Source: an uncultured Bacteroidales bacterium (lineage in GTDB: Bacteria > Bacteroidota > Bacteroidia > Bacteroidales > JAAUTT01). From it: a DNA stretch of 59,680 nt. Location: the NCBI GenBank assembly GCA_964478555.1, contig CAYZNC010000001.1, forward strand, positions 1-59,680, in the 5' to 3' direction. A program made the position numbers and the translations under genes. This document shows positions 17,281-49,093 of this stretch, in pieces. Position 1 is the stretch's first letter; each line of letters starts with the position of its first letter. A model generated the notes under the pieces. It ran no database searches. It saw nothing but the letters and a program-made list of their open reading frames with translations, and was not told the origin of the DNA.

Positions 17281-18168
17281 ATGGTTAACCTTTCAACTTC
17301 CTGGAAACATATGGAATTAACAACAACAATTAATGCAACCGACAGGAAAACCCTTATAATTAGTTACGGTGAGATGGCCGGGACTGTTTATATGGACAAC
17401 ATCAAGTTATATAAGACTGCCGGTAGTTCAAGTTCTACCAGTTTAGTAGTAGAAAAAACTGCTGGGGAGAAAACACAAATCATCGGGGCTGCAATGACAA
17501 ATTGGATTTCAGGAATGGTTACAAACTGTAAATCTTCTGTAAAAGCTTGGGATGTTGTTAACGAACCAATGGACGACGGAAATCCACATAATCTTAAAAC
17601 AGGAATTGGTAAAACCAATTTAGCGCCCGATGAATTCTATTGGCAGGATTATTTGGGTAAAGATTATGCTGTACAGGCATTTAAACTTGCCCGTCAAAAT
17701 GGCAATTCAGGAGACTTACTATTTATCAACGATTATAATTTGGAATATAATTTAGATAAATGCAGAGGCTTAATTGAATATGTGAATTACCTTGAAAGCA
17801 ATGGAGCCAAGGTTGATGGTATCGGTACTCAAATGCATATGGATATTTATTCCAGTAAGGATAACATTGCCCAGATGTTTCAGTTACTTGCAGCAACCGG
17901 TAAACTTATCAAGGTTTCCGAACTTGAGGTTAGGGTAAACACTTCGTCCCCCACAGCTGATATCCTGCAACAACAAGCTGAAATGTACAAATATGTTGTA
18001 CAAATGTATTTTAAATATATTCCGGTAGCACAGCGATATGGAATTACCGTTTGGAGTCCACTGGATAGCAACAATAATTCTAATTGGTTTCAGGGGCTCT
18101 GGAATATAAAATATGATAGAAAGCCTGCATACACAGGTTTTGCCGACGGGCTATCGGGGACTAATTAG
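17281..18168 (+). CDS. GH10 endo-1,4-beta-xylanase, C-terminal part carrying both catalytic Glu regions; same frame as 16027..17244
   Basis: Same frame as the upstream ORF, and open from 17245 (IQSPDYSSSGFG precedes the ATG at 17281). Contains the end of the CBM4-like module (GTVYMDNIKLYK), then GH10 motifs WDVVNEPMDD (acid/base region) and KVSELEV (nucleophile region). This piece has no signal peptide of its own. Confidence 0.85.
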   Translation: MVNLSTSWKHMELTTTINATDRKTLIISYGEMAGTVYMDNIKLYKTAGSSSSTSLVVEKTAGEKTQIIGAAMTNWISGMVTNCKSSVKAWDVVNEPMDDGNPHNLKTGIGKTNLAPDEFYWQDYLGKDYAVQAFKLARQNGNSGDLLFINDYNLEYNLDKCRGLIEYVNYLESNGAKVDGIGTQMHMDIYSSKDNIAQMFQLLAATGKLIKVSELEVRVNTSSPTADILQQQAEMYKYVVQMYFKYIPVAQRYGITVWSPLDSNNNSNWFQGLWNIKYDRKPAYTGFADGLSGTN

Positions 18169-26515: not shown

Positions 26516-26653
26516 CCGAGGAATTTTGAGTTCGCAAATTAGTTAGAAAAGTGAAATCTTTTAGCATGATGTGAATTTTTTCCGTTTTTATCTTCATCAT
26601 TTTAAGGAAAACTTGTAAATTTGAGTATATCCTTTAGGAATTAATTCAAGTTG

Positions 26654-28327
26654 ATGAAGAAACTATACTCACTTAAAATTGCCGGGAAGATTGGCTCCGG
26701 GTTTGGAATACTCGCCTTGGCCATTATACTCAATGCATATTTTACCAATGAGGTACTGAACAAGAGTCGCAAATTAAACGAACAAATTACAACAGTTTAC
26801 CAACCATCGGAAGAACTGCTGGTACGTCTGCGCGATATGATCAACAATTCTCAGATGCTCATTAAAAGCTGGGTTTTTGTGGAAAAAGTTGCAGATACCC
26901 CTGATAAACTTAAGCTTGTAAAATTACACAACCAGGATTATCCTTTACTTCAGCGTAAATTGTCCAAGATTTCAGATGAATGGGTCGATAGCACTCGGAT
27001 TAAATTTCAAAATCTTTCCTTATCCATTGATACATTGTTTACTATGCATCACACGGTAATGGATCTGTTAACCAGCATGGCTGCCTACGATGACGCCAAC
27101 CTGATGTTCCTTAGAATTACGCCTTTAGTATCTTCAGATAGTGGTGCGCTGATTATTAAAAAAACCAGTGAGATATTGTCTAACCTCGACAAATTGATCA
27201 GTATTCAGCAAGCTACGGTTTCTAAACGGCAGCAAGCTATGAATGAGTCGTTTAAAGGATTGCAAAATTTTATTTTTCTTACTTGCTTGGTTCTCATTGG
27301 AGTGTCGTTGTTATTGGCATTTTTCACCGTGCGTTCGTTGGTTGTGCCTGTAAAATATTTGAAAAAACTCCTTCGTTCAATGAGCAGGGGTATTTTGCCC
27401 AATAGGACAATAAGGGAAAGCGGTGATGAGATAGGTGAAATGACAAAAGCGCTCAACGAATTAGTCTCGGGATTAAAAGCTTTATCTGGGTTTGCTCTCG
27501 AAATTGGTCGTGGAAATTACGATAGTGATTTTAAGCCTCTTAGCGACGATGATGTGTTGGGTAATGCATTACTTCGTATGCGCGATGATCTGAAATCAGC
27601 CACTGTGGAAGATGCCAAGCGGAAACTTGAAGATGAGCAACGCAACTGGGCAACAACCGGTGTTGCAAAATTCAGTGATGTTCTGCGACACGACAATGAC
27701 AAGCTCGATGTCCTTTCCTACAACGTCATCAGCAACCTGGTTAAGTACATGGATGCTAATCAGGGAGGCATTTTTATTGTAAATGACAATGATCAGTCGA
27801 ATGTATTTATTGAATTGGTGGCTTGTTACGCTTTTAGTCAGAAAAGACATCTCGAAAAAAATATACAATTAGGCGAAGGCCTTGTAGGGCGATGTATTCT
27901 GGAAAAGGAAACCATCTACCTCACCGATATACCTGATAGCTACATAAAAATAAATTCAGGTCTGGGGGATTCAAACCCACGTAGCTTGTTATTGGTTCCT
28001 TTAGCTATGAATGATGACGTATTTGGTGTAATTGAGATTGCTTCATTCAAAGAAATTCAGGCCTATCAAATTGAATTTGTAGTGAAAATAGCCGAGATCA
28101 TAGCTGCAACATTATCGACAGTAAAAATCAACATGAAAACTACCGATTTGCTTGAACAATCACGCATTCAAGCAGAAGAACTTGCCGCTCAGGAAGAAGA
28201 GATGCGTCAAAATATGGAGGAATTGCGGGCAACACAAGAGCAATCATCTCGTAAAGAGCAAGAGCTGCAGGTAGCACTTGAAGACATGCAGCGCAAAATC
28301 GATGGTAATAAGAGACGGTCAAATTAA
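26654..28327 (+). CDS. Membrane sensor protein with HAMP and GAF domains and a C-terminal coiled coil; no recognisable output domain
   Basis: N-terminal TM, ~180-aa extracytoplasmic helical region, second TM (FIFLTCLVLIGVSLLLAFF), HAMP (VPVKYLKKLLRSMSRGILP...GDEIGEMTKALNEL), GAF-like region (GGIFIVND...LVGRCILEKETIYLTDIP...VPLAMNDDVFGVIEIASF), then AEELAAQEEEMRQNMEELRATQEQ. The ORF-track start at 26651 is TTG. The ATG is at 26654. Confidence 0.75.
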   Translation: MKKLYSLKIAGKIGSGFGILALAIILNAYFTNEVLNKSRKLNEQITTVYQPSEELLVRLRDMINNSQMLIKSWVFVEKVADTPDKLKLVKLHNQDYPLLQRKLSKISDEWVDSTRIKFQNLSLSIDTLFTMHHTVMDLLTSMAAYDDANLMFLRITPLVSSDSGALIIKKTSEILSNLDKLISIQQATVSKRQQAMNESFKGLQNFIFLTCLVLIGVSLLLAFFTVRSLVVPVKYLKKLLRSMSRGILPNRTIRESGDEIGEMTKALNELVSGLKALSGFALEIGRGNYDSDFKPLSDDDVLGNALLRMRDDLKSATVEDAKRKLEDEQRNWATTGVAKFSDVLRHDNDKLDVLSYNVISNLVKYMDANQGGIFIVNDNDQSNVFIELVACYAFSQKRHLEKNIQLGEGLVGRCILEKETIYLTDIPDSYIKINSGLGDSNPRSLLLVPLAMNDDVFGVIEIASFKEIQAYQIEFVVKIAEIIAATLSTVKINMKTTDLLEQSRIQAEELAAQEEEMRQNMEELRATQEQSSRKEQELQVALEDMQRKIDGNKRRSN

Positions 28328-31120: not shown

Positions 31121-32431
31121 ATGGTTACTAAAATTTGTTGTTTGATTTCAAAGTTTTGCTTTGGGGCAATCTTATTTTTTATGGTTTCGTGTGAAGGACC
31201 AGCAGGACTCCCCGGAGAAGATGCCAATGAAAGTTGCAAATTATGCCACAACCCCAATGTCGTAGACCTGGTTAGCGCCCAATATGAACTTTCCAAACAT
31301 GCAAGAGGCGATGCTTCTTTTACTGAAACAGGCAATGTTTCCTGTGCCCCTTGTCACGAATCAACCGGATTTAAATTTGTTTGTACCAATAATATACCTG
31401 CAACATTTACCCTTAATTCCGCCACAGGTAAGTATGTTAATGATTATTTTACATCCGATAGTACAACCTATGGCACATTCACTTGTAACACATGCCATAG
31501 TAATTTACATAAATCCTACGACAAAACAGATTTTTACCCGTTCACAACTACTGCCCCTGTTAACATGACTATGTGGGCAGGTGCTAAAACTATTGATATT
31601 ACTCAAGAAAACAGCAAAAGTAACCTTTGCATAAAATGCCATCAACCTCGCCCGGCTACAACTAGTTCAACTTTGTCTGATGGCAATATTGTTGATTATA
31701 CCTATTTGGTTGCCCATCCTTCAGAAGTTTATTACGATTCAGCTGTTGGAAATGCTAAGCCAAATAAGCTCATACCAAGTTATCGTACAGGTATACATTA
31801 TGGTTCGGTTGGTGCAATATTCGCTGGTAAAGGGGGTGTTGAATTTACCGGTTCTGTGCCATCTTACGAGAGTTCTGAACATACTTCCACTTCGTCATGT
31901 CAGGATTGTCACATGGCTAAAATTACAGGTGGGGCAGGGGGGCATACCTTTAATGCAAAAGGAAATTTCGGAGGATGCAATGTTTCAGGATGTCACAGCG
32001 ATGACCCTATGAATAGCACATCATCTGAACTTGTAAATGTTCAGAATGAAATCAGAACGCTACTTGAATTATTAGCCTCTAAATTAAAATCAGGAGGCGT
32101 TGAAATTCTACATCAGGACCCCGATGTTACAACAAACTTATGGTATGGAATAACCACTAAAAATTATGATGGGAACTTAAATATATATGATCCCTCAAGC
32201 AATCCTGGCGGAACCTTTCAAAACCCGGCTCCGGCAAAAACCTGGACTACCGGTCAGATAACCACCAATAAAGCGCTACGAAAATTTACTTCATTGAAGG
32301 ATGTTCAATTAGGCGCTATCCTTAACTTTCAATTGTGTTTAAGAGACTATAGTTTGGGTGTTCATAATTACGCCTACGCAAAAGCGCTTTTAACAAATTC
32401 AATTGATGCATTAACCGTTGCTGGTTTTTAA
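31121..32431 (+). CDS. Multihaem c-type cytochrome lipoprotein
   Basis: 436 aa. Lipoprotein signal ILFFMVSC. Five CxxCH motifs (CKLCH, CAPCH, CNTCH, CIKCH, CQDCH) plus one CX4CH (CNVSGCH). Confidence 0.85.
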   Translation: MVTKICCLISKFCFGAILFFMVSCEGPAGLPGEDANESCKLCHNPNVVDLVSAQYELSKHARGDASFTETGNVSCAPCHESTGFKFVCTNNIPATFTLNSATGKYVNDYFTSDSTTYGTFTCNTCHSNLHKSYDKTDFYPFTTTAPVNMTMWAGAKTIDITQENSKSNLCIKCHQPRPATTSSTLSDGNIVDYTYLVAHPSEVYYDSAVGNAKPNKLIPSYRTGIHYGSVGAIFAGKGGVEFTGSVPSYESSEHTSTSSCQDCHMAKITGGAGGHTFNAKGNFGGCNVSGCHSDDPMNSTSSELVNVQNEIRTLLELLASKLKSGGVEILHQDPDVTTNLWYGITTKNYDGNLNIYDPSSNPGGTFQNPAPAKTWTTGQITTNKALRKFTSLKDVQLGAILNFQLCLRDYSLGVHNYAYAKALLTNSIDALTVAGF

Positions 32432-32494
32432 GTCATTTCAGGCAGAAATGATAGTAAAATTCAGCAACGAATTTAAACTAAATGTATAAATAAA

Positions 32495-33979
32495 ATGACG
32501 TTAAAATGTAAACTTTTGGTATTGGTTATAGTTCCACTATTGATTTGCACAACCGTTGCAGTATTAATTTCATCTTTTAAAATTAGAAAACAGGGTGTGG
32601 ACGGACTTGAAGATAAGAGTGCCTCCATACTTTCGTTGAGCATTCAGGAATTTGTTACACATCATAAAGATTATTCGAGCATTTTTGAAAATGATGATAA
32701 GAAATCTTCAACCCAAAATACAGCCTTATTAACGCAAAATTATAAATTCAGAATTTCATCATTGGATCCTGGGAACAAAGTCCATTTGGCTTTGGAAAAG
32801 GATAAAAAATTTATCGGGCAGTTTGAAAAGGAAAGGTGTAAAGAATTAACATATATCGATAAAGATTCGAATCTGATTTCTGTAATGCGGCCTGTTTTCA
32901 TGGAGAAATCCAAAGGATGCCTTGAATGTCATGGTACAAAAGAAGATAAGTTGAATGCAAATGCTGACAGTAAGTTAAGAGGTATGTTTATTATTACTTC
33001 ATCCATGGATCAAGTCAACAAACAAACAAACTCCGCCATATTACAGATTAGTATTATTGGATTTATCATACTGGTTATTGCGGTTGTTCTTGGATATATT
33101 TATGTAGTAAAGATCAATTCAGCTATAAAACAAATAAATAATGTTAGTAAGTGCCTGTCCGAAGGCGACCTCACGGAGAAAGTGGATATTCAGTCAAATG
33201 ACGAACTCGGCGAATTAGGTGATTATATCAACTCGATGATTCATTCAATAAGCAAAGTACTGATTGGCGTGAAGATTGCAGCTGATAAGTTAACGGTATC
33301 AACCAAAGAAATTGCAAGTACTGCCAACACTATTTCCCAAAGCGCCAGTGAATCGGCTGCATCCATTGAAGAAGTATCTTCTACAATGGAAGAAATTACT
33401 GCTCATATTGAGATCAATAGCCAAAATGCAAATCAGGCAAAAACGATATCGGAAAATGCAAACTATGGAATGATCGAAGTTAGGGAACAATCTGGGATAG
33501 CAGTGGAAGCTAATAAATCAATTGCGGATAAAATAAAATTAATAAACGATATAGCTTTTCATACTAATTTGCTTGCTCTTAACGCAGCAGTAGAAGCTGC
33601 CCGAGCTGGAGAACATGGGCGCGGATTTGCCGTAGTTGCTGCCGAAGTACGAAAACTGGCCGAAAATAGCAGGAAGGCTGCCGATGAAATACATACTTTA
33701 TCCGGAAAATGTTTGGCTCAGGCTGAACATGCAGCTAATAAGATGTTATGTCTTATGCCCGAACTTGAAAGCACTGCCAAAATGGTGCATGAAATATCAG
33801 TGGCAAGTAAGGAGCAAACACAAGGTTCGGTCCAAATAAGCGGTACCATTGTTCAGCTAACTTCTGCTACACAGCAAAATGCTTCCGCAAGTGAAGAACT
33901 ATCCTCAAGTGCCGATCAAATTGCCCACCAGGCTGAGCACCTTAGAGAACTGATATCATTTTTCAGACTTGACAATTAG
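32495..33979 (+). CDS. Methyl-accepting chemotaxis protein with periplasmic haem-c (CxxCH) sensor domain and HAMP
   Basis: 494 aa. TM1 [18 protein letters not shown]. Periplasmic domain with CLECH (nt 32918-32932) in a context resembling Tll0287-like/DUF3365 haem sensors. TM2 [23 protein letters not shown] ([10 protein letters not shown]...[13 protein letters not shown]). MCP hairpin tip [35 protein letters not shown]. Confidence 0.88.
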
Positions 33980-33985
33980 GAGTGG

Positions 33986-34708
33986 TTAATGAATGATGGT
34001 TGCATCTTCCAACAGAACTTCATAAAAATAGCCATAGCCAAAATCTTTGTTTACTGCCACTAAGCCTTGCATTATAATAGTATCTCCTATGGACACCGAG
34101 GCTTTAGTTGAAATTACCAAATCAAATTTACCTGCGTATTCGGTACCATCCTGAAGATGAACCCAATTTTTCTTCATGATGTCAGCACTAAACCTTGTTA
34201 CAATTCCTGATAATTTAACCATTTTGCCAGCATAAAGAGCTTTTTTGGCGTACAGTTCGGAAAGGGTTATCCTCCCATTTATAGATTTTATATGAATGGT
34301 GATTCTCTTTAGATTGTACGCATTTATATTTATATGCTTTTCTATGCTTTGTTGTTTCTGTGCTAAGGCCGGGGTAGTAATCAAATTCTCTTTATCGTTG
34401 CTAAGACCTTCAAGAAAAAGAATTTGTTTAAAGGTCCGCTTCAATTCTTTACTTGCAAAATTATACATGATCAATCCACCCTGATAATAATAAGCTCCTC
34501 CAATTTTTATATTAGCATGAGGAATAGCAATCCATATATCAGTGTCGTTTTCAGATGCAAGGACAAAGGTATAATCATTTGAACCAATTGATTCTTTGAT
34601 AATTACCGTGTGAGTATCAAGCGGAATAGCGCCATTTTTATTTGAAAAAAAATTTTCACAGGCAGCCAGGATTAAAATAAAGCCTGTAAATACCATTATT
34701 TTTTTCAT
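33986..34708 (-). CDS. Hypothetical two-module lipoprotein (second module OB-fold-like)
   Basis: The ATG at 34708 gives the lipoprotein signal MKKIMVFTGFILILAAC and overlaps the upstream stop as ATGA (34705-34708). The C-terminal module is GKMVKLSGIVTRFSADIMKKNWVHLQDGT...DFGYGYFYEVLLEDA. Function unknown. Confidence 0.6.
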   Translation of the reverse strand: MKKIMVFTGFILILAACENFFSNKNGAIPLDTHTVIIKESIGSNDYTFVLASENDTDIWIAIPHANIKIGGAYYYQGGLIMYNFASKELKRTFKQILFLEGLSNDKENLITTPALAQKQQSIEKHININAYNLKRITIHIKSINGRITLSELYAKKALYAGKMVKLSGIVTRFSADIMKKNWVHLQDGTEYAGKFDLVISTKASVSIGDTIIMQGLVAVNKDFGYGYFYEVLLEDATIIH

Positions 34709-35118
34709 TTTCTTAGCGTGCGCATATAATTTACCAGATTCCAAATGTCGGAATCATCAATTTTATGCTCGTATTTTGGCATTTCATTTCTTCCGAATTT
34801 GGATTGATAAAATAGTATGCCATCAGATTGGCTTTGAAATTCAGCACTTGAAAAATCGCCCGGAAATGTTTCCAGATTTTTGGATTTAATGCCATCGCCT
34901 AATCCTGTTTTACCGTGACACGACGCACAATTTTTTCGATACAACCCTTCTCCTGCCTGTATACTGGCGTCCGACGATTTAACGACATTCTTCATTGTCT
35001 TGTAATTTTCAGGTATTTTCCATGGTTTACCTTTAGGTGGTTGAGCCGTGATCATTGCCATGAGTAAAATAACTGAGCTTGCTGTCAAGAGTGCTGCCAA
35101 AGTTGTCTTCATCTTCAT
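34705..35118 (-). CDS. Class I monohaem cytochrome c
   Basis: 137 aa. Signal peptide. CASCHGKTGLGDG haem site. Downstream Met-containing region (GRNEMPKY) typical of the distal ligand loop. Confidence 0.85.
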   Translation of the reverse strand: MKMKTTLAALLTASSVILLMAMITAQPPKGKPWKIPENYKTMKNVVKSSDASIQAGEGLYRKNCASCHGKTGLGDGIKSKNLETFPGDFSSAEFQSQSDGILFYQSKFGRNEMPKYEHKIDDSDIWNLVNYMRTLRK

Positions 35119-35204
35119 ATTTTTTAGTTTAAGGAATGTTGGAACCGCTTATACTTTATGAATATGCGTTTACGTCTTGGTAATTGCATGAGTTTCACTA
35201 ATTG

Positions 35205-36095
35205 TTAGAACTTAACATTTATATTAAAAGCGAACATATAATTTTTGGAAAAATGCTTTGTAAAAGGGTCATTATCGTTATATACAAGATTTTGCTGGCC
35301 TATAATTCCCTGATAATTCGTTATAAAAATTTGAAATGCATGGGTAGCTGTTCCTATTTCCAAACCTAATGCAAGGTTTGGTTTTGATTCTACCCTGGCA
35401 GTTAACGGTTGGTCATACTCAAATAAGATCGATTTTGAGTCCCAAATTTTCACCCTTCCACCGAAAGTAATGCCGTAATTTATATTCTTATGAAGTGTGT
35501 CCACTGAATTATAGTATACGAACTGAGGAGCAAGTTGTAACGAAACTGCATCGTCGAATTTTCGGGCAATCATAAATTCAGTAAGATAGGAAAACCTGTG
35601 TATGAACCTATAAGTGGTTTTTGGTGGAAAGAAAGCCTTGTCGCGTGCATCTAAAACAACATTGCCGAAATAGCTGATTGAAACTGGTTTGGAGTCTGAG
35701 CGGTTTTGTTTTAATAATGAAACTTTCCAGTTTAAATCCTGAAGTTTATTATACATAGTTGTTCCGCAACCAACCATTATTTTGTCTGTAAGTCCATAAT
35801 TTATAGCAATTCGGGTATTGGCAGCTCCATAAATACCATAAATATCACTTATCCCATTTTCCATAGAAGAGAAGCGATGTTGTATGTTTAATTCAAGCAT
35901 TTTTTTAAAAGGACTCATCACTGATGGGGTCTCTACTAAAATACCTGCTGAAAATGTTGATTTTACAGGCAGATTCCCCGTTTCTTCCTTACCATCCTGT
36001 CCAAAGCATAATAAAGAACCAGACAAAACGGCAATTGTCAAGTTAGCCCGGATTGCAAATTTTCTCAAAAGATTATAATTTTTAATCATTTCCAA
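35205..36095 (-). CDS. Small outer-membrane beta-barrel protein (DUF5777-like)
   Basis: 296 aa. Signal peptide. Alternating hydrophobic strands throughout. Motif THAFQIFITNYQG. C-terminal NINVKF with terminal Phe, typical of OM barrels. Confidence 0.6.
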   Translation of the reverse strand: MEMIKNYNLLRKFAIRANLTIAVLSGSLLCFGQDGKEETGNLPVKSTFSAGILVETPSVMSPFKKMLELNIQHRFSSMENGISDIYGIYGAANTRIAINYGLTDKIMVGCGTTMYNKLQDLNWKVSLLKQNRSDSKPVSISYFGNVVLDARDKAFFPPKTTYRFIHRFSYLTEFMIARKFDDAVSLQLAPQFVYYNSVDTLHKNINYGITFGGRVKIWDSKSILFEYDQPLTARVESKPNLALGLEIGTATHAFQIFITNYQGIIGQQNLVYNDNDPFTKHFSKNYMFAFNINVKF

Positions 36096-36102
36096 CCTGT
36101 TT

Positions 36103-36465
36103 TTAATTATTCCTGGCCCCTTGTTTTATCCATTGCAAAATTTTCTGCAATTGATCCGGACTTACTCTGGAAGAATGTGAATTATCTGTTTTTAGCTTAA
36201 CATACAGTATACTCTGGGCAGGGTATTTAATATTAACATAATTGCCATCTTTGAGTGTTTGATAAGGGTTATCTTTCAAATTTGGAGACTTTAACCCATC
36301 GTGGCAACCAGTGCATACCGTAAAAATTGGTAGAATATCTCTTGAAAACTTTATACTATCAGCTTCAGATAACGGATTGTCTTGTAGTGTAACCCTTTCA
36401 CAAGAATTGTAAAAAAAAATGTTCCATAATATAATAGAGAATACAAGGCCTCTCTTAAAACTCAT
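36103..36465 (-). CDS. Small lipoprotein with a CxxCH haem-binding motif (PSCyt-like context)
   Basis: 120 aa. Lipoprotein signal IFFYNSC. ILPIFTVCTGCHDG. First gene of the four-gene minus-strand cluster, 7 nt upstream of the barrel gene. Confidence 0.6.
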   Translation of the reverse strand: MSFKRGLVFSIILWNIFFYNSCERVTLQDNPLSEADSIKFSRDILPIFTVCTGCHDGLKSPNLKDNPYQTLKDGNYVNIKYPAQSILYVKLKTDNSHSSRVSPDQLQKILQWIKQGARNN

Positions 36466-38831: not shown

Positions 38832-41800
38832 TTATTGTAATTTCAATATTTTCTTTGTCACTGAACCTTCTTCTGTTTGAATTTTTATGAAATACAAGCC
38901 TGCGCTCAGCCCATTCAAATGAAGATCTGATCCATTCTTGAATTTCTGTGAGGGTATTACTACATTTCCATTAGCATTTAAAATCACAATCGTTAAATAG
39001 TCTTCTTTTGCATTTTCCATGCGAATGGTAACATAATCAATAAATGGATTTGGAGATATTACTACCGTATTAGTACCTATTTCACCCTGAGTGACGATCG
39101 ATTTGGTTGTAAGAACATTTCCATCAGTACCTTGGGCAGCAGCTGCAGCTGTGGAAGTTTGCACCACAATGGATGAAGTCCAGTCATTTAAATTGATGGC
39201 GACATTGTTGGCATACAAACTAACCAAACAAGAAAAATCTCCCTGAAACGCATATGCATCCCCTCCAAAGTTATCATCCTGATACAGAATTGCTTCATAG
39301 CCACTTTTAACTTTAATCGAGGAGATATCGTCGTTCTTAATACCTTTCGCTATCAACTGAGTAAGTGTGTAACTACCTGGTGCCAGATCTACCGCATATC
39401 CACCATAGTTGCAATCCTGATAAACTGAAGCTGCAACAGGTGCAATTATCTGCAAGCTTATCTGCACCGATGCTTGCCCTCCTCTGTCGTCTGTTACTAT
39501 TGCTGTGATTATATAAGATCCCAAAGCAACATTAGTCCATGTAAAGGAATAAGGCGCTGAAGTAGCTTCTCCAAGTTTTACAGAGCTATTAAAGAATTCT
39601 ACTTTGGAAATATTGCCATCTGCATCAGATGCATTTACTGTCAACACTACATTCGTCGGGCCATTAAGTATGGTTCCTGAAGTTGGCGAAGCAAAGCTTA
39701 CAGAAGGTAGCTGATTGCTGGTAGAACGAACTCTTAACGAAGAAGTTGAGTCGTTAAGTCCAAGAGAATACAAACAAGCTATATCAGAAGAAAATACATC
39801 CGCCTCTCCTGTGAAATTATCATTTTTGTATAATACCACTTCGTAGCCACTGCTTATTTTTAGAGAAGAAATGTCGTTGTTAGGAATGCCTTTTGCCATC
39901 AGCTGTGCAATAGTATAGTTTCCAGCTTCGAGTCCAACGGCATAGCCGGATGTCAAATAATTACAATGTTGAAATACAGTAACAGGAAGGCTGGGGGTAC
40001 CATAAACTTCAAACTCCCACAATGAATATCCCCAAGCAGTTGCACGTTGTGTGCCGTACATTCTTACGTATCTGCCAGTACCTGTAATTGCCAGATCGTT
40101 TGTTCCTCCAGTGCCGGTTGTTGTGCTGTAAATAGAAGTCCAATTGGTTGCATCAGATGATACTTGTATTTCATAAGCACTTGCATAGGCTGCTTCCCAA
40201 CTTAGTTTTACGCGGTTAATATTGTATGCGGCTCCCAGATCGACGTAAATCCATTGAGGATCCGAATAAAGGGATGACCAGCGATTTGCCATGCTCCCAT
40301 CAAATGCATAGCTGGCAGGGAAATCTGAAGTTTCCACTGACGAAGCCACAGCAGGTTTGTTCAATGCGAGGTCGAGGACGGAAATGTCAGGAGGAACAGT
40401 ACCGGAAATATAGTACGAGCCAATCGATGCATAATTCGAATACCCGTCTGTTGCAGGGTTTCCAGCCCCTGTTCCACGAACGGACACATAGTAGGTTCCC
40501 TGAGTAACGCTTGTATTGATAGTACTTGGAAGCCCCGAAGGGTCATAGGTAGCAATAACTGTTCCTGCACTATTAAACAAAGTAACAAATATGTCAAGAT
40601 CTGAATGCCTTATAATTGTACTGAAGTTAAGTACAACATTTCCTCCGCCCGTAGAAAACGAAAATACATCAATATCGGCAGCGTTTTCAATGACACCATA
40701 ATTTTGGGATGCCGAAATATTGCCCAAACCATCGATGATGAGTGGGGCTGCAGTGGCAAAGGTATTTCCATGGTCGTCGGCCCTGTATCCCAAGCCATAA
40801 TTGGCACCGGAAATAATAGCCATATCATCCTGTACGTTATTTGCATATGCATACTCACCTTTACTCCATTGTGTAATAGGTTTGTAGTAACCTACCCCCA
40901 TAATAGGAGCCCAATTCCCTTGTCCTGCATAGTATTCTTCAACCGGAGAAGTCCTGCCATCGTGGCCTAACCCGAGGGTATGTCCAATTTCGTGCGAAGC
41001 CGCTTCTCCTCCAGCTTTGCCACCAGCCATAAACGACCAGCATGGTGTTTCATCTCCCCAATTGAAACAGCCCACATAAGCAACTCCTCCAGCACCCGGA
41101 GCTGCTGTATTTGTGGGAGTAAAAATGCACCTCATCCTGCGATTTTTTGGATATGTATTATACACAGCTTCGCTGGTAGTAATGTTGATATTAAAAGGAC
41201 GATAATCTTCGCTGATCATTTCCCATGCTTCCTGAATATTGTCATCAGTTACGGCGAATGCTTGAGCATCAATTGGATTACCATTATTCCAATGCGCGTT
41301 AACAACGTATTGGCCATCGAAATCAAGTAAAACACATCCGTTAGCGCCCGGATAACTCTGCATATTCAAGGTGCTGGCACTTACAGTAGTAGTTGCCTTA
41401 GTGGGTGCAACAGCTGATTTTAGGTTGCTGTTAGGTTTGTTATAATCTATACAAATGACACCGTTAATATCGGTTTTAACTACATAAGCATTTCCCTGAT
41501 CGTCAGAATAGTACTTATAATCCTCCCTGGTGCTTTTCAAAATAATATTACCCTCTACCGAATTAGAACTGTATTTAACAAAAAAGGCAGAGGAAGGGAT
41601 ACCATCCAATTCTCCGGCGAGCTCTTGTTTGCCGCTTTCAGTTGTTCCACTGTAGGTGATTTTTGCCACAAAAGTTTGGGTACCCGAAACTGCCAAATTC
41701 AGTTTTTGAACATTACCAGGGGCCGATTTTAACTTGTCCCCAAACAGCCCTGTGCATTTACCCAATAAAAACGGAGTGCTCTGAGGTTTCTGCTGAGCAT

Positions 41801-41855
41801 AACCAAAGGTTGTTAGTAAACATAGTACGAGACTAAATAGAATAAATTTTTTCAT
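38832..41855 (-). CDS. Secreted modular metzincin zinc metalloprotease with PPC, discoidin (F5/8 type C), Ig-like and two beta/gamma-crystallin-like modules and a T9SS C-terminal sorting domain
   Basis: 1007 aa. Signal peptide. HEIGHTLGLGHD plus Met-turn candidate WAPIMG. Pre-peptidase C-terminal-like module (GNTFATAAPL...YYVSVRGTG). Discoidin module (ALNKPAVASS...RWSSLYSDPQWIYVDLG...SLWEFEVYG). Ig-like module PSVSFASPTSG...ISKVEFFNSS... flanked by two related ~90-aa modules (VFQHCNY...SSLRVRS; VYQDCNYGGY...SSIVVQ). CTD ends GLYFIKIQTEEGSVTKKILKLQ. Confidence 0.85.
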   Translation of the reverse strand: MKKFILFSLVLCLLTTFGYAQQKPQSTPFLLGKCTGLFGDKLKSAPGNVQKLNLAVSGTQTFVAKITYSGTTESGKQELAGELDGIPSSAFFVKYSSNSVEGNIILKSTREDYKYYSDDQGNAYVVKTDINGVICIDYNKPNSNLKSAVAPTKATTTVSASTLNMQSYPGANGCVLLDFDGQYVVNAHWNNGNPIDAQAFAVTDDNIQEAWEMISEDYRPFNINITTSEAVYNTYPKNRRMRCIFTPTNTAAPGAGGVAYVGCFNWGDETPCWSFMAGGKAGGEAASHEIGHTLGLGHDGRTSPVEEYYAGQGNWAPIMGVGYYKPITQWSKGEYAYANNVQDDMAIISGANYGLGYRADDHGNTFATAAPLIIDGLGNISASQNYGVIENAADIDVFSFSTGGGNVVLNFSTIIRHSDLDIFVTLFNSAGTVIATYDPSGLPSTINTSVTQGTYYVSVRGTGAGNPATDGYSNYASIGSYYISGTVPPDISVLDLALNKPAVASSVETSDFPASYAFDGSMANRWSSLYSDPQWIYVDLGAAYNINRVKLSWEAAYASAYEIQVSSDATNWTSIYSTTTGTGGTNDLAITGTGRYVRMYGTQRATAWGYSLWEFEVYGTPSLPVTVFQHCNYLTSGYAVGLEAGNYTIAQLMAKGIPNNDISSLKISSGYEVVLYKNDNFTGEADVFSSDIACLYSLGLNDSTSSLRVRSTSNQLPSVSFASPTSGTILNGPTNVVLTVNASDADGNISKVEFFNSSVKLGEATSAPYSFTWTNVALGSYIITAIVTDDRGGQASVQISLQIIAPVAASVYQDCNYGGYAVDLAPGSYTLTQLIAKGIKNDDISSIKVKSGYEAILYQDDNFGGDAYAFQGDFSCLVSLYANNVAINLNDWTSSIVVQTSTAAAAAQGTDGNVLTTKSIVTQGEIGTNTVVISPNPFIDYVTIRMENAKEDYLTIVILNANGNVVIPSQKFKNGSDLHLNGLSAGLYFIKIQTEEGSVTKKILKLQ

Positions 41856-41897
41856 AACATGGATTAATTAGTTAATAGATAAATTGATATGAAGAAT

Positions 41898-41931
41898 GTA
41901 GAGATTGCAGTCTTCTGGCCACAATCTCTAC
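41898..41931 (-). terminator. Possible hairpin terminator/attenuator between the chitinase and protease genes
   Basis: Perfect 10-bp inverted repeat GTAGAGATTG (41898-41907) / CAATCTCTAC (41922-41931), 8 nt downstream of the chitinase stop. The U-tract is weak. Confidence 0.4.
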
Positions 41932-41938
41932 AACAGTA

Positions 41939-44900
41939 TTACTTAATGATCATTTTCTTTATTTTTGAATATTTTCCAACATTCAATTTATAGAAATAAA
42001 TTCCCGCAGATAAATTACCTGCGTTCAATACAATAGAATAATCACCAGCGTTTTGCTGCGCATTTACCAGTGTCATTATTTCCTTGCCAGTTATGTCAAG
42101 TACTTTCAACAATACTGGGGAAGCCTTGGATAAGCTATATGAGATAGTTGAAGTTGTTGTAAACGGGTTAGGATAGTTCTGGTACAACACAGGCTCTGTA
42201 TTTCCATTTGTAACAGAAGATACATCGGTAGCTAAGGCACCAGTGAGATTGGCCGCAGCACTACCAAAATAAACACTATAATTATTCAGGAACTCCGAGT
42301 TATTGGTGAGGTCCCAGTTGATGGACCATGTCATTAACCCTCTGAATCCCGGATAGCCTGATGATTTTTGAAGGATATAGCCACCTCCGAACGATACGCC
42401 TTGTGTAAGGTAGGAGAGTGCCTTCTTCATCTCAGCAGGACTAATATAACCTCCACTTGGAGCTGCTGCGGGGGTGGCTGGTATTCCAATCATCACCTGA
42501 TCTTCTCTTAAAGGAGGAAACATATTGCTGCTGTTGCCGGCAATTGGAAATCCTTTCATCACCATTTCAGCCATAGCTACTTCAAAATCAGCTGTTCCCG
42601 GATTGTAGTTTTTTCCATCAAGTCCTGTGCTGCTTCCGCAATTGTAATGCTGAACATGCAGATACGTTAATTTATCACTGAGTTTATGAATAATGGGAAG
42701 ATATGCGCCCCAGGGACCCCCGTAAGCAATGATGCCACCTTGTACGTAAGCAATTTCAGGAGCCATGCTTAAAATGAAATTAGCACCAAAATGATCGCAT
42801 ATTTGGCGTGTGGCCGAAATCAGGTTCACAATCTGTGGATTTGCCGGATTATCAAGGCTCTCACCTGAGTTAACCGTAACGTTGTTCTCAAGATCAAGAT
42901 CGATGCCGTTAAATCCGTATTTCTCAATTAGAGCGATAGCGGTAGATATAAAAATATCCCGGGCATTATTATCCGAAACAATCAGTACTCCGTTTTGCCC
43001 ACCTATCGAAAGCACTACTTTTTGTCCTCTGGAATTTAACAAAGCAATGTCCGATTTAAATTCGTCGTCGGTTGCATTGAACGGAGCAAATTGAAGTGAA
43101 CACCGGTCTCCTGCAGTTTCAGCGAAAGCGACATTAATAACATTCCATTTTGAAGCAACATCTCTAAGCTTGATGGTTGTTGAGCCATTAGAGAAGTTAT
43201 GCCAGTAACCGACTAATAATTTATCGGGCAAATTTCCTCCGTTATTACCACCGCTTAGGGTAATTGCATTCGCCGTATTGGTGAAATTGGAATTGCCATA
43301 AGTATTTTCAGCGCAGACCCGGTAATAATAGTTGGTAGATTGAGCTAATCCGGTATTGGCAAAACTGGTTGTATTTGCAGCAACGGTGGTTAACAAAACC
43401 CAGGTTGTTCCATCGGAAGAACGTTCAATCCTAAAATCGCTTTCATTGGTTGAGTTATCGACCCAGGAAATAGAAATTTGGCTGCTGGATATTGCCGAGG
43501 CAGACAAACTGCCTGGAGCCGCAGGAGCTGTTTGATTGTCACCATCGCATAAACCGATGTATATCCATGCATCCTGCCAGGCAAAACCAACTCCGGGTTC
43601 ATAAGCAGAATTTGTGGAATTAGCCCATCCGTCATATGGCCAGGGTTTGCATTCGTATATATTGCCAATGTTTGAAATTCTGTCACCACCTTTGTAGGAA
43701 CCTATTCCGGAAGGGTAAGCTGGCAATCCGTTGCAGGTCGATCCACCTCTGGTAACGTCAATGACAATGCTTGTTGAAGTAGTCGATGCCCCTTTATCAT
43801 CGGTGGCTACTGCGGTAATGGTGTAAGAACCTGCTGCTACATAGTTCCAGGCAATACTATAAGGAGATGTATTATCAGTGCCTAAAGAAGTTGTACCATT
43901 AAAGAATTCGACTTTTGAGATGCTACCGTCATTATCGCTGGCATTAGCAGAAACAGTAATACTTGCAGGAGCTATGAATGTAGCTCCATTCGAAGGACTG
44001 ACTAGACTTACTGTGGGTGGTGTATTACCTGCAGTATTAACAGTTACTGATACACTGCCAGAAGTGGTAGAAGCGCCTTTGTCATCAGTAGCAACAGTAG
44101 TAATGGTATAAGAACCAGCAACCACATTGTTCCAGGCAATACTGTAAGGTAATGTATTATCAGTTCCTAAAGAAGTTGTACCATTAAAAAATTCGACTTT
44201 TGCAATACTACCGTCATTATCGCTGGCATTAGCGGATATAATTATGTTTGCCGGGGCTGTGTACGATGCTCCGGTTACAGGACTGGAAATAGCCACAGTA
44301 GGCGCTATGTTTCCTGAACTGCCGCAAGGCCCTATCAATATCCAGGCGTCCTGCCAGGCAAATCCTACCCCCGGAACATAAGCATCGGCTGCTAAATTCG
44401 CCCATCCATCGTATGGCCAAGGCTTGCATTCATATATATTACCGATGTTAGAAACCCTGTCTCCTCCTTTGTAAGATCCCCTTCCTGTGGGATAAGCTGG
44501 TAATCCACCACAATCTGATCCACTACTTACCGTGATTGTCACTCCGCCGGACATAGTTGTTGCACCTTTATCATCAGTAGCCATAGCTGTAATAGTATAA
44601 GCACCCGTTGCTACATTGTTCCAGGAAATGCTGTAAGGAGATGTATTGTCAGTTCCCAAAGAGGTAGCACCATTATAAAATTCGACTTTTGAAATACTAC
44701 CGTCACTGTCACTTGCATTGCCTGATATAGTGATGTTTGCCGGGGCAGTAAATATGGCCCCATTTGCAGGACTCGTTATACTGACTGTTGGAGGGTTATT
44801 TCCTCCGGTGCCATTAACAGCTACAGTAACCCTGCTTGAAGTGGTAGACGCTCCCTTGTCATCAGTGGCGATAGCTGTTAGGACGTAAGAACCCACCCCT

Positions 44901-46627
44901 ACATTGTTCCAGGAAATGCTATAAGGCGAAGTATTTTTGACTCCTAACGATGTTGTACCATTAAAAAATTCGACTTTTGAAATAGTTCCATCTGCATCTG
45001 CTGCATTAGCTGAAATTATAATATTGGCAGGAGCTGTAAACGAAGCTCCACTGGCAGGATTGGTGAGGCTGATTGTTGGTGATGAGTTACCTCCCCCGCC
45101 AGTGGCAAATACTTCGTTAATTTTATTTACCAGTTCGGATTTTACCGTTGACCATCGTTTTAATTTTGTTCCAAAAGAAGTTACCGCTCCACTTAGTTCC
45201 AAATCGCCATAAACTGTCCATACAATGGTTCCGGCAAGCTGGTTATCTGCAATAAACTGTGCTTTATAACCAATAGACTCAACATCATCGTAGCTTAGAA
45301 AGTATGATCCGTTGGTTAGGTATGGTACTTTTGCCTGATTGTCCCATTGTCTTGTCCATCCGCTTCCTGACGTAAGCGCTTTTTGCTTAATAAAGAAATA
45401 ATTGGGAGTGCCATCGTACACATCTTTAGGCCAATTGGTATAATCGGCACACGTAGTGATAGGGCCATCGGGCTGAACAGTTTCACTCCTTTTAACAGTA
45501 GTGGCATTTAACGCAGCAGAACCTTGGGTAATCACTCCTCGGCCATAAAAAGGTGCGCCAAAATTAATTTTACTTTTAGGAACGCCCAAAGAATTGAGTG
45601 TAGTTAATAAGCTTTGCCAGTTAAAAGTAGTGGCTTCTGCTCCGTCATAATTATATAATGGTGAGTTATGTCCTGCTTTGTTTGACCATCCGCCATTGAA
45701 ATCATAAGTCATGAAGTTGTAGTAATTCATGATATTATTGAGTTTATTCCATTCAAGCCCTTGAATCTTCGCAGGGTCAGCGGAAATGGCAGCAGTGATT
45801 AACTTGTCTGTGCCAATTGCATTTCTGATTTCCTGAACAAGTGTGGTTAAATTTGCAAAGTCTGCCGGGGTTCCTGTAAAGTTCATACCGGAATATGGTC
45901 CGGGATATTCCCAGTCCAGGTCTATTCCATCAAAACCCACATTAATCAGTTTCTTGCAATCGTCAACAAACTTTTTCCTTTTTGTAGGATCGGCAGCCAT
46001 TGCAGGATAATGCTTGCACATACTCCAGCCACCTATGGAAGCTAATACCTTAACACCCTTTTGATGTGCCAATGTCAATAGTCCTGGTGCACCTGTTTCT
46101 TTATGTAGAGGTACAGGTAAAGGTTTATTCAGCAGTCCCCAGGTTGGGTTAGACCATGTGCTTCCTCCCACTTGTACTTCAAAGCCTTGTGCCTTGCAAC
46201 GGTCAGCTGCAGTCTGGTCGATATATTGGATGGGATCAATCTCTCCGAATAAAATGTACATGTCCCAACTACTGTATATATCGGTATAAAAAATATCTGC
46301 AGGTTGTTGCACCTCATTGGTCATGTAAATGTTTTTATTACGGAAGTCGCCACTGTGGAGAGACCCATCCACAGCCACGCCAAAAAACGAAAAGTTCAGG
46401 ATCGTGTATTTTGAATAATCGATATTCAAATGAGTTAGTGCTCCTACATCGGGTAATCCTGCTGGTGCTGCTTTCCAGGCATCCCAATTGGTTATGTATC
46501 CTATCACCTGTTTACTGTGACTTGCAGTGGTTGCTGTTCCTCCTGTATTTACCTGTGCAAAACCGGTTGCTAAAGACAACCATAACACCAACGCACTTGC
46601 CAGTAGGTTTTTGAATAGTCTTTTCAT
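41939..46627 (-). CDS. Giant secreted chitinase with two GH18 catalytic domains, (Ig-like, Ig-like, CBM5/12-like) x2, FN3 and a T9SS C-terminal sorting domain (architecture like Flavobacterium johnsoniae ChiA)
   Basis: 1562 aa. Signal peptide. N-terminal GH18 with FDGIDLDWEYP. Four Ig-like modules (ISKVEFFNGTTSLG...). Two Cys-bounded modules (YKGGDRVSNIGNIYECKPWPYDGWAN...FAWQDAW). FN3 (ISISWVDNSTNESDFRIERSSDG...YYYRVCAEN). Second GH18 with GFNGIDLDLENN. CTD YPNPFTTTSTISY...GIYFYKLNVGKYSKIKKMIIK. Confidence 0.92.
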   Translation of the reverse strand: MKRLFKNLLASALVLWLSLATGFAQVNTGGTATTASHSKQVIGYITNWDAWKAAPAGLPDVGALTHLNIDYSKYTILNFSFFGVAVDGSLHSGDFRNKNIYMTNEVQQPADIFYTDIYSSWDMYILFGEIDPIQYIDQTAADRCKAQGFEVQVGGSTWSNPTWGLLNKPLPVPLHKETGAPGLLTLAHQKGVKVLASIGGWSMCKHYPAMAADPTKRKKFVDDCKKLINVGFDGIDLDWEYPGPYSGMNFTGTPADFANLTTLVQEIRNAIGTDKLITAAISADPAKIQGLEWNKLNNIMNYYNFMTYDFNGGWSNKAGHNSPLYNYDGAEATTFNWQSLLTTLNSLGVPKSKINFGAPFYGRGVITQGSAALNATTVKRSETVQPDGPITTCADYTNWPKDVYDGTPNYFFIKQKALTSGSGWTRQWDNQAKVPYLTNGSYFLSYDDVESIGYKAQFIADNQLAGTIVWTVYGDLELSGAVTSFGTKLKRWSTVKSELVNKINEVFATGGGGNSSPTISLTNPASGASFTAPANIIISANAADADGTISKVEFFNGTTSLGVKNTSPYSISWNNVGVGSYVLTAIATDDKGASTTSSRVTVAVNGTGGNNPPTVSITSPANGAIFTAPANITISGNASDSDGSISKVEFYNGATSLGTDNTSPYSISWNNVATGAYTITAMATDDKGATTMSGGVTITVSSGSDCGGLPAYPTGRGSYKGGDRVSNIGNIYECKPWPYDGWANLAADAYVPGVGFAWQDAWILIGPCGSSGNIAPTVAISSPVTGASYTAPANIIISANASDNDGSIAKVEFFNGTTSLGTDNTLPYSIAWNNVVAGSYTITTVATDDKGASTTSGSVSVTVNTAGNTPPTVSLVSPSNGATFIAPASITVSANASDNDGSISKVEFFNGTTSLGTDNTSPYSIAWNYVAAGSYTITAVATDDKGASTTSTSIVIDVTRGGSTCNGLPAYPSGIGSYKGGDRISNIGNIYECKPWPYDGWANSTNSAYEPGVGFAWQDAWIYIGLCDGDNQTAPAAPGSLSASAISSSQISISWVDNSTNESDFRIERSSDGTTWVLLTTVAANTTSFANTGLAQSTNYYYRVCAENTYGNSNFTNTANAITLSGGNNGGNLPDKLLVGYWHNFSNGSTTIKLRDVASKWNVINVAFAETAGDRCSLQFAPFNATDDEFKSDIALLNSRGQKVVLSIGGQNGVLIVSDNNARDIFISTAIALIEKYGFNGIDLDLENNVTVNSGESLDNPANPQIVNLISATRQICDHFGANFILSMAPEIAYVQGGIIAYGGPWGAYLPIIHKLSDKLTYLHVQHYNCGSSTGLDGKNYNPGTADFEVAMAEMVMKGFPIAGNSSNMFPPLREDQVMIGIPATPAAAPSGGYISPAEMKKALSYLTQGVSFGGGYILQKSSGYPGFRGLMTWSINWDLTNNSEFLNNYSVYFGSAAANLTGALATDVSSVTNGNTEPVLYQNYPNPFTTTSTISYSLSKASPVLLKVLDITGKEIMTLVNAQQNAGDYSIVLNAGNLSAGIYFYKLNVGKYSKIKKMIIK
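43531..45088 (-). repeat. Intragenic tandem duplication inside the chitinase gene: (Ig-like, Ig-like, CBM5/12-like) supermodule x2, about 780 bp each
   Basis: A recurrent DNA block on the plus strand (CCATTAAAAAATTCGACTTTTG and close variants) occurs near 43897, 44180, 44669 and 44958. The protein repeats are listed in the chitinase entry. Confidence 0.75.
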
Positions 46628-46649
46628 ATGATCAAAGTTTAAATTAACG

Positions 46650-47715
46650 TTATTCCACCACTATTTTTTTCTGAATATCTCCTTGTTCTGATTTTAAAGA
46701 AATAATATAGATACCCTTTGCCCATTTTGAAACATCAGGTTGAATGATATTCGTATCTTTTGTGATGGTGGAGATATATACAATTCTGCCGGTTATGTTG
46801 TAAATTCTGAGGATACCCTGGCTAGTTATTCCTTTAAAAGCAACTGTTAAATTACCTGTTGCCGGATTGGGATAAGCGTCCATGTTAACGGGTGAGGTAT
46901 TCTCGGGATTGGATAATTCAGATTTGACCGTACTACCATATACCTCAAATTCCCACAATGAAAAGCCATATTGTGTAGCTCTGGTTAATCCGTACATTCT
47001 TACATAGCGAGCGTTAACGGGAGGGAGGTTTATATCTTCGGTACCACCAGCACCAGCTGTTATTGTTTTTTGCACCGTCCAGTTAACATTATCAGTGGAT
47101 GTTTCGATACGGTAAGAACTTGCATAAGCGACCTCCCATTTAAGTACGATTTCGGATATGTTTTTGGTTGAGCCAAGGTCGACTAATATCCATTGGTTAT
47201 CGGCATATGAAGACGACCAGCGTGTAGTTGTGGTATTGCCATCAAAAGCTTTGGAAGGTTCAAACCCTGTAACTTCGATGGACGATGCGTTTGCCACTTG
47301 GTTCAAGGCCAGGTTCGAACTTGTTGGGGCAGCGTACACCTCGAACTCCCATAACGAAAAACCATACACTGTGGCTCTTTTCAATCCGTACATCCGCACA
47401 TAACGGGCGTTCACGGTTGGGAAGCTAATATCTTCCATGCCACCGGCACCAGACGTTATTGTTTTTTGTACTGCCCAGTTTATGTTGTCGGAGGAGGTTT
47501 CGATGCGGTACGAGCTGGCATAAGCAGCCTCCCACTTGAGCACAACGCGTGAAATATTTTGGGCAGCGCCAAGGTCGACTGATATCCATTGGTTGTCGGC
47601 ATACGAAGAAGACCAACGGGTTGTGACTGCGTCACCATCAAAAGCCTTGTATGGTTCGAAACCGGCAGTTTCGATAGAAGATGAGTTGGCTATTTTATTT
47701 AATGCCAGATTTGAA
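46650..47715 (-). repeat. Paralogous DNA blocks shared with 49094..49760 (CTD plus discoidin modules)
   Basis: 46650-46997 aligns with 49094-49440, and 47386-~47715 aligns with 49434-~49760, at high nucleotide identity judged by eye (long identical runs such as GGCACCAGACGTTATTGTTTTTTGTA and CAAGGTCGACTGATATCCATTGGTTGT). Confidence 0.8.
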
Positions 47716-48944: not shown

Positions 48945-49093
48945 GATGAATGGCTTTAAAAAGGTTAATTGTCAATTAAATTTCGTAAAGCAAAACCTCA
49001 AGTCGCAAAAAATATTTTTCTTTATGACCTGATGGCTTTGTGTTATAATAGATTATATTTCAAGGTATTTCAGCTAACAATCAATTTTATTAA

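Follow-up and report, generated by a model that had tools for sequence, protein, structure and literature searches.

Why should a chemoreceptor gene lie directly behind the gene for a multihaem cytochrome in a Bacteroidales genome, and what would such a receptor sense and control? We addressed this question for a window of 59,680 nucleotides (nt), one complete contig from an uncultured Bacteroidales bacterium, in which the gene for a hexahaem c-type cytochrome lipoprotein (31121-32431) is followed on the same strand by that for a methyl-accepting chemotaxis protein (MCP; 32495-33979) whose periplasmic sensor carries a single CLECH motif. The explanation that we favour, with moderate confidence in it as a whole, is that the MCP is a haem-c receptor feeding a Che pathway, that it is made together with the module to which the cytochrome belongs, and that the result is energy taxis or nitric oxide (NO) taxis.

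An earlier reading made from the letters of this window (the original prediction) had described the cytochrome as a lipoprotein with five CxxCH motifs and one CX4CH, and the receptor, 63 nt downstream, as a protein with two transmembrane (TM) helices, a single periplasmic CLECH, HAMP, and a canonical hairpin tip; it had placed the pair in a Bacteroidota-type genome and had seen no che genes in the window. All of this was borne out. Open reading frames (ORFs), hydropathy, and Pfam returned the same receptor, and the cytochrome motifs recurred in its homologues as described below. Gene content of the window is Bacteroidota-like, with two SusC/SusD pairs, two hybrid two-component regulators, type IX secretion system (T9SS) C-terminal sorting domains on several glycoside hydrolases, and a cytochrome bd oxidase. 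The search for che genes, which covered the 59.7-kb window, found none.

Receptor and cytochrome

The receptor gene and its parts are as follows (aa, amino acids; AF2, AlphaFold2).

32495-33979 (+): MCP, 494 aa, with periplasmic sCache_heme sensor (ORF, Pfam)
32507-32575 (+): TM1, ~aa 5-27 (hydropathy; AF2 helix unbroken over aa 3-57)
32576-33031 (+): periplasmic sCache_heme (Tll0287-like, PF11845) sensor, ~aa 28-179 (Pfam, AF2, Foldseek)
32918-32932 (+): CLECH, motif for haem-c attachment, aa 142-146, on a short helix flanked by beta strands
33032-33109 (+): TM2, ~aa 180-205 (hydropathy, AF2)
33116-33253 (+): HAMP, aa 208-253 (Pfam, 34.8 bits)
33422-33925 (+): MCP signalling domain (PF00015), aa 310-477 (Pfam MCPsignal, 114 bits)

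The periplasmic domain belongs to sCache_heme (DUF3365/Tll0287, PF11845), a family defined in a February 2026 preprint by Deshpande, Xing, Gumerov, Crane, and Zhulin (10.64898/2026.02.01.703092). Its PF11845 match scored 37.1 bits against a cutoff of 24.1 over aa 75 to 153, and orthologues matched as well. The domain is flanked by two hydrophobic helices, with Lys at the N terminus and after TM2, a topology that makes it extracytoplasmic. An AF2 model of the sensor with both TM helices, built from 61 sequences, had a mean predicted local distance difference test (pLDDT) score of 89.3 and a predicted template modelling (pTM) score of 0.81; in it the CxxCH-bearing helix (142-146) follows strand 127-135 and precedes strand 161-170. 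When the modelled sensor was compared with known structures by Foldseek, the best match was Tll0287 (5B82; E value of 6e-6), followed by a WalK sCache model (9a5d; 8e-6); the sensor of Geobacter GSU0935 (3B42) was also matched (2.6e-3). The TM-scores were modest (0.26 to 0.45), since the query contained both TM helices. Searched against PDB sequences, the sensor domain gave spurious matches and zero haem sensors, both with phmmer and with a subfamily profile. The sensor is thus too diverged for sequence matches to the solved members, and its family assignment therefore comes from the Pfam hidden Markov model and the fold comparison.

Homologue searches with the sensor domain gave fragments only, even with an 11-sequence profile, and 1.84 billion representatives were searched exhaustively with HMMER instead. 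This search returned 231 matches at an E value of ≤1e-3, with 20 clusters at ≤1e-30. The loci from named genomes, nine of nine, were metagenome-assembled genomes (MAGs) labelled Bacteroidales, Bacteroidetes, or Rikenellaceae. The two points on which a periplasmic haem-c sensor depends, conservation of the CxxCH and location of the domain between two TM helices, both held up: among the 150 matches listed, 113 were full-length, of which 112 had the CxxCH, and at least 77 had the MCP tip motif. Across 61 diverse relatives, the triad of C142, C145, and H146 was the sole invariant feature. The receptor is accordingly expected to carry one covalently bound haem c at CLECH.

About half of the sCache_heme members are stand-alone redox-type proteins with Cys/His ligation; others are fused to histidine kinases, MCPs, or cyclic di-GMP enzymes and lack the axial Cys (10.64898/2026.02.01.703092). 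The sole extra periplasmic Cys of the window receptor, C115, varies, and just 4 of the 61 relatives have any extra periplasmic Cys. Because the axial Cys is not conserved, the receptor is of the signalling type, and a Cys/His-ligated redox-type sensor like Tll0287 was rejected. On the cytoplasmic side, the canonical hairpin tip EAARAGE lies at aa 367 to 373 (nt 33593-33613), the signalling part comprises ~17 + 17 heptads (~34H), and the C-terminal pentapeptide is absent. Matches to the methylation consensus occur at aa 288, 456, and 463, by pattern alone. Tsr structures matched the MCP at an E value of 1e-41.

The cytochrome gene directly upstream has the following features.

31121-32431 (+): hexahaem c-type cytochrome lipoprotein, 436 aa (ORF, motifs, 49 homologues)
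31235-31249 (+): haem motif 1, CKLCH, aa 39-43, aligned to the active-site CWSCK of NrfA 3UBR
31343-31357 (+): haem motif 2, CAPCH, aa 75-79
31484-31498 (+): haem motif 3, CNTCH, aa 122-126
31628-31642 (+): haem motif 4, CIKCH, aa 170-174, an additional haem relative to the NrfA alignment
31898-31912 (+): haem motif 5, CQDCH(M), aa 260-264, aligned to CxDCHM of NrfA and octahaem nitrite reductase (ONR)
31976-31996 (+): CX4CH motif CNVSGCH, aa 286-292, unusual, with C286, C291, and H292 invariant

The signal peptide ends in FFMVSC, with the lipidation residue Cys24 at nt 31190-31192 and a Gly/Pro-rich linker after it. The public gene call is 429 aa, implying a start ~7 codons 3′ of the ATG used here; the later start leaves the lipobox and the haem motifs unaffected. 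Cys24, all six haem motifs, and six more His residues were invariant in 49 homologues (54 to 69% identity), and because of this invariance the haem motifs are not a product of chance. The family is large, with 788 protein matches, many labelled as Bacteroidia or Bacteroidales MAGs, and 378 confirmed metagenome loci.

Pfam gave only weak, motif-level matches to c7, c3, MtrC-like, and c552 families. Those to cytochrome c7/c3 (PF14522, 30.7 against a cutoff of 24.8; PF02085, 26.6 against 22.9) cover just aa 114 to 181 of 436, or two haem motifs, and amount to a motif-level resemblance. The scores for NrfA (PF02335, 15.5 bits against 24.1) and for the MtrC/MtrF domain (20.6 bits against 30) were below threshold. 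In a single-sequence search the cytochrome aligned weakly to NrfA 3UBR (E value of 0.027), with CQDCHM on CVDCHM, and the family profile matched an octahaem nitrite reductase (8rv0; 0.0015) and NrfA (8bcx; 0.069) in the PDB. We read the cytochrome, from these alignments, as a probable distant relative of the NrfA/ONR multihaem superfamily that stands outside its membership. An MtrCAB-like extracellular conduit was considered and rejected: the DUF5777 barrel encoded nearby has only 296 aa, whereas the MtrB type has ~26 strands, and the MtrC match is subthreshold.

Gene pairing and the cytochrome cluster

The two genes are separated by a short gap.

32432-32494 (+): intergenic gap between cytochrome and MCP, 63 nt

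A scan of the gap found neither a terminator-like hairpin nor the Bacteroidota-type −7 motif TAnnTTTG; a sigma-70 promoter scan did no better than on shuffles, and the TAnnTTTG count equalled chance. The gap thus appears compatible with cotranscription of the cytochrome and MCP genes. Loci from relatives, designated by L numbers, show the same order on the same strand in four lineages: the window, L005 (cytochrome 65% identical to that of the window; same layout), L007/L008/L012 (63%), and L074 (67%). Flanking genes differ among these paired loci, and their MCPs are merely 58 to 66% identical to one another. In L007 the MCP gene closes a tight string, cyt-resB-ccsA-mcp, whose gaps measure 8, 30, and 11 nt. 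A neighbour-joining tree placed the cytochrome-adjacent receptors and those adjacent to che genes (see below) in one orthologous group.

Downstream of the pair, the window encodes the following genes on the opposite strand, so that the cluster reads cytochrome, MCP, and then, convergently, lipoprotein, cytochrome c, DUF5777, and small haem lipoprotein.

33986-34744 (−): lipoprotein, 252 aa as listed, an accessory gene of the window's subclade only
34705-35118 (−): monohaem class I cytochrome c with CASCH, a core cluster member
35205-36095 (−): DUF5777 predicted outer-membrane beta barrel, 296 aa, a core cluster member
36103-36465 (−): small lipoprotein with one CTGCH, a core cluster member

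With the TTG start as listed, the gene for the 252-aa lipoprotein overlaps the cytochrome c gene by 40 nt; its true start is probably internal, with MKKIMVFTGFILILAAC giving a lipobox. The C-terminal 119 aa of this protein recur in L007 as a shorter protein.

The cluster was compared across the window (31121-36465), L005, L007, L009, and L019-L098. The neighbourhood census covered 80 metagenomic cytochrome loci, each counted only where enough flank was present (5 kb downstream or 3 kb upstream). Of the 24 loci with ≥5 kb of downstream sequence, the monohaem cytochrome c was found in 21, DUF5777 in 17, the small CxxCH lipoprotein in 16, and NrfD-like genes, which NCBIfam classes as DsrO/DsrP- or QrcCD-like, in 9. 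Among the 33 with at least 3 kb upstream, a Crp/Fnr regulator was present in 27 and a ResB-CcsA haem lyase, which also occurs as a fusion, in 25; in most relatives this dedicated lyase adjoins the gene for the CX4CH-bearing cytochrome. The regulator is usually divergent from the cytochrome, and the cluster regulators bear an Fnr-like CxxCxxC...C motif. Of 65 distinct loci, 31 had an Fnr-type box (TTGAT-N4-ATCAA, one mismatch at most) ~117 to 128 nt ahead of the cytochrome gene, compared with a background of 1.8%. Fnr control of the window's own copy was rejected, as no box was found within the 186 nt upstream, even at three mismatches. A literature search returned nothing relevant on DUF5777 or on the hexahaem cytochrome cluster. 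The cluster may represent a pathway of anaerobic respiration or detoxification, so far unrecognised, that is common in Bacteroidia of sediment and soil, and it may be more novel than the receptor itself.

Che operon in relatives and competing explanations

The original prediction left the downstream partner of the receptor unknown, a view that the relatives overturn. The best MCP orthologue (67.5% identity) is found in the Bacteroidales MAG MFD04716.bin.2.165 (L014), in a cytochrome-free neighbourhood and divergent from a complete, single-strand operon, cheD-mcp-cheY-cheA-cheW-cheR-cheB (Pfam, L014 and L018; L014 1-8980). The same arrangement of receptor and che genes is present in L002 and L004. 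In L014 and L018, CheA has Hpt, dimerisation, ATPase, and CheW domains and lacks a receiver, CheY is a single-domain protein, CheB combines a receiver with a methylesterase, CheD is present, and the mcp of the operon encodes a second MCP. The Bacteroidales lineage of L014 has a complete chemosensory pathway, and the partner of the window receptor can be inferred from it by orthology. The same finding bears on the suggestion that full che operons would make such a receptor ordinary, which holds in part: an operon does lie beside the orthologue in relatives. Early censuses counted zero MCPs in Bacteroidetes, and later surveys do count them there; our literature search found nothing relevant on che systems in Bacteroidota or Bacteroidales.

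The contig of the L014 che operon also carries SusC/SusD-like genes. We considered whether this MAG holds three MCP paralogues and rejected it: L011 is 100% identical to L014 over their overlap and shares its PHO4 neighbour, and the L018 copy, on a 1.18-Mb contig, is frameshifted, pointing to redundancy of the assembly or bin. Genes fragmented by frameshifts were seen in several MFD/ENA long-read contigs (L002-L004).

In the mechanism that we propose, the receptor's haem iron would either bind NO or another diatomic or change its oxidation state and switch ligand. The change would pass through TM2 and HAMP to the ~34-heptad signalling bundle, which would control a canonical CheA-CheW-CheY pathway with adaptation by CheR, CheB, and CheD, encoded elsewhere in the genome. 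In the window's subclade the receptor gene was placed directly 3′ of the hexahaem cytochrome gene and is probably cotranscribed with it, and for that reason the receptor would be made together with a low-oxygen module. The cytochrome would be the signature gene of a widespread periplasmic electron-transfer cluster of Bacteroidia, to which the relatives' versions add a quinol module of the NrfCD type, a dedicated haem lyase (CcsBA), and, together with an Fnr box, a regulator of the Fnr type. With its synthesis coupled to this respiratory or detoxifying module, the receptor could report a substrate or by-product of the module, for example NO or another N-oxide, or else how oxidised or reduced the periplasmic cytochrome pool is, and the outcome would be energy or NO taxis.

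Which signal applies is disputed for the family. Redox or electron-acceptor sensing, as first proposed for this pair, stays plausible, but the sole biochemistry on a signalling-linked family member points to NO. That HAMP-linked protein binds NO tightly (off-rate, 6e-4 per second) and does not form a stable O2 complex, and the preprint argues for NO sensing by the signalling-linked members, "Cluster 2" (10.64898/2026.02.01.703092). The position of the window receptor hints at what it senses, and its operon-like link to the cytochrome cluster turns the dispute over NO and redox into a concrete, testable hypothesis.

Several observations weigh against this explanation. The che genes of the window's genome are presumed from relatives, none being present on the 59.7-kb contig, and motility as the output is likewise presumed. 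The window's cluster is a reduced one, in which, within the window, the Fnr gene, the Fnr box, CcsBA, and NrfCD are all missing. Similarity of the cytochrome to NrfA/ONR is marginal; its AF2 model was poor across the haem-rich half, where pLDDT fell below 50, and a Foldseek search with that model returned 0 matches. The pairing, too, is restricted. The synteny that had been expected of the pair was found in four lineages, but these belong to one subclade, and among the 46 metagenomic loci with at least 1.5 kb downstream an MCP lay next to the cytochrome in one (L074). L009, whose cytochrome is 62% identical, has no MCP. Orthologues or close homologues of the MCP occur in at least four other contexts, with unrelated settings in L003, L015, L016, and L017, and the same haem sensor domain is also found in 634-aa proteins fused to HAMP-GAF-PAS (L010 10001-11905 and L013 2654-4558). 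The linkage is thus derived, confined to one subclade and general to neither gene.

The same counts favour the possibility that the two genes are accidental neighbours, the receptor being a free-standing NO or redox chemoreceptor inserted in a permissive spot and having no tie to the cytochrome cluster. We regard this as doubtful, although it is the alternative that survives best. It fits the single MCP among 46 cytochrome loci, the orthologues beside che operons in L002, L004, and L014, and the homologues elsewhere; the spot between the convergent cytochrome and cytochrome c genes, moreover, also accepts a lipoprotein (lip252, u241, or u157) independently of the MCP. It fits less well with the persistence of the linkage in four diverged lineages with differing flanks, with the terminal place of the MCP in the tight L007 string, and with the need of both proteins for periplasmic haem-c attachment. 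The linkage has been kept long enough to suggest selection.

Even if the receptor is tied to the cytochrome cluster, its Che-like pathway might act on gene expression, biofilm, or surface behaviour, as do systems of the alternative cellular function (ACF) or Wsp type. Such an output is compatible with the mechanism proposed above, but we consider it unlikely. Bacteroidia lack flagella, and the window encodes T9SS cargo proteins and zero flagellar genes; the absence of MCPs from the early Bacteroidetes genomes would also agree with an output other than motility. In L015, a gene for a SiaC-family partner-switch phosphoprotein (1938-2312) lies directly 3′ of a 45%-identical sCache_heme MCP homologue, which hints that in this lineage the output is not motility. 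Against this, the operon beside the orthologue encodes a plain CheA, a single-domain CheY, and CheD, a composition typical of motility-type systems, and it encodes zero output enzymes.

The most specific version of a sensing role, in which cytochrome and receptor form a dedicated sensing pair, the receptor haem is poised by an Fnr-controlled cytochrome/DUF5777 pathway or reads its product, and a complete Che pathway steers non-flagellar motility (gliding/T9SS) toward the electron acceptor of that pathway, strikes us as quite improbable. If true, it would be the first case of Che-controlled energy or NO taxis in gliding Bacteroidia. Least probable of all is a direct redox relay, in which electrons would pass between the docked hexahaem lipoprotein and the sensor haem, so that the receptor would read flux through this one pathway (pathway-specific energy taxis) and not a diffusible ligand: gene adjacency, probable cotranscription, the periplasm-facing haem of both proteins, and the behaviour of the Geobacter homologues as redox-potential switches speak for it, but contact between cytochrome and sensor is an assumption only, most receptor orthologues have no such cytochrome nearby, and the tested signalling-type family member is an NO binder. 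We retain, as the best account of the locus, a haem-c receptor made with the cytochrome module and signalling through a Che pathway.

Other genes of the window and known relatives

Elsewhere in the window, four consecutive large T9SS-sorted secreted proteins are encoded at 38832-51796 (−). Three have glycoside hydrolase (GH) domains (GH18, GH18, and GH26), all four have F5/8-type C or Big_7 modules, and a hybrid two-component regulator (52041-56195) comes next after the run. A GH10 xylanase is split between adjoining ORFs: 16027-17244 encodes the N-terminal part of the GH10 catalytic domain plus CBM4_9, and 17281-18168 encodes the remaining GH10. Either a GH10 interrupted by a carbohydrate-binding module (CBM) has been split by a frameshift or a stop codon, or the gene is a pseudogene. 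Another window gene (26651-28327) specifies a TM-HAMP-GAF protein of 558 aa that has a coiled-coil tail and lacks CxxCH. In the sensor-HAMP-GAF-PAS proteins of L010 and L013 an output domain was not recognised, and the neighbour in L010 is a dCache-HAMP-GAF protein. Output-less HAMP-GAF proteins seem to be a recurring signalling type of Bacteroidales.

The receptor type has already been described, and the value of the locus lies in its context. The Fnr-regulated hexahaem/DUF5777 cluster and the Bacteroidales che operon are more interesting by-products than the receptor. Some Bacteroidales have complete CheA/W/Y/R/B/D in a phylum generally regarded as having neither chemotaxis nor flagella, which raises the question of what the pathway controls.

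Among known systems, NrfA and ONR are the nearest to the cytochrome. In weak alignments they share with it the first haem motif, three more CxxCH motifs, CxDCHM, and a C-terminal helical region, and in relatives a CcsBA-type lyase and NrfC/NrfD-like genes lie near the cytochrome gene. The differences are substantial: the cytochrome has six haems rather than five or eight, one of its motifs is CX4CH, it is a lipoprotein, and NrfH is absent. A bona fide NrfA was rejected on these grounds, with six motifs instead of five, a first motif (CKLCH) that contains the invariant His43 where NrfA has CxxCK, and a subthreshold PF02335 score.

For the receptor, the best structural match is Tll0287 of Thermosynechococcus (5B82), which gave its name to the Pfam family. 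Tll0287 is a stand-alone protein of the His/Cys-ligated redox type, whereas the window domain is membrane anchored, fused to a signalling domain, and without a conserved Cys ligand. Closer in architecture are the Geobacter receptors GSU0582 and GSU0935 (3B47 and 3B42), which have the same order of TM1, periplasmic haem-c domain, TM2, HAMP, and MCP domain; they are described as switching ligands in a redox-linked manner, and their midpoint potentials are −156 and −251 mV. The original prediction had cited them, and the link goes beyond analogy: the window sensor belongs, like theirs, to PF11845, its predicted fold matches that of GSU0935, and both Geobacter proteins are listed in sCache_heme (10.64898/2026.02.01.703092). 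Sequence similarity to them is nevertheless too low for detection by phmmer or a subfamily profile, their host is a member of the Desulfobacterota rather than the Bacteroidales, the distal ligand in Geobacter is Met, and it is the window receptor whose gene adjoins a hexahaem cytochrome cluster.

The likeness is closest to Cluster 2 of sCache_heme, in which the CXXCH likewise lies in a short helix between beta strands of an extracytoplasmic Cache fold fused to HAMP and an MCP domain, and the conserved axial Cys is absent, as in the window receptor. What differs is that the window's tight subfamily is small (the 20 clusters at an E value of ≤1e-30) and is known from sequence alone. In the family as a whole, the CXXCH is conserved in 99% of >5,000 sequences, and fusion to an MCP is a common architecture (10.64898/2026.02.01.703092). 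The taxon table lists the family at 1,793 against 11,000 genomes for Bacteroidota and at 196 against 4,720 for Bacteroidales (10.64898/2026.02.01.703092); it is thus uncommon in Bacteroidales, yet already catalogued there. The window receptor is a new member of the known family of sCache_heme MCPs, and the type of system that it represents is not new.

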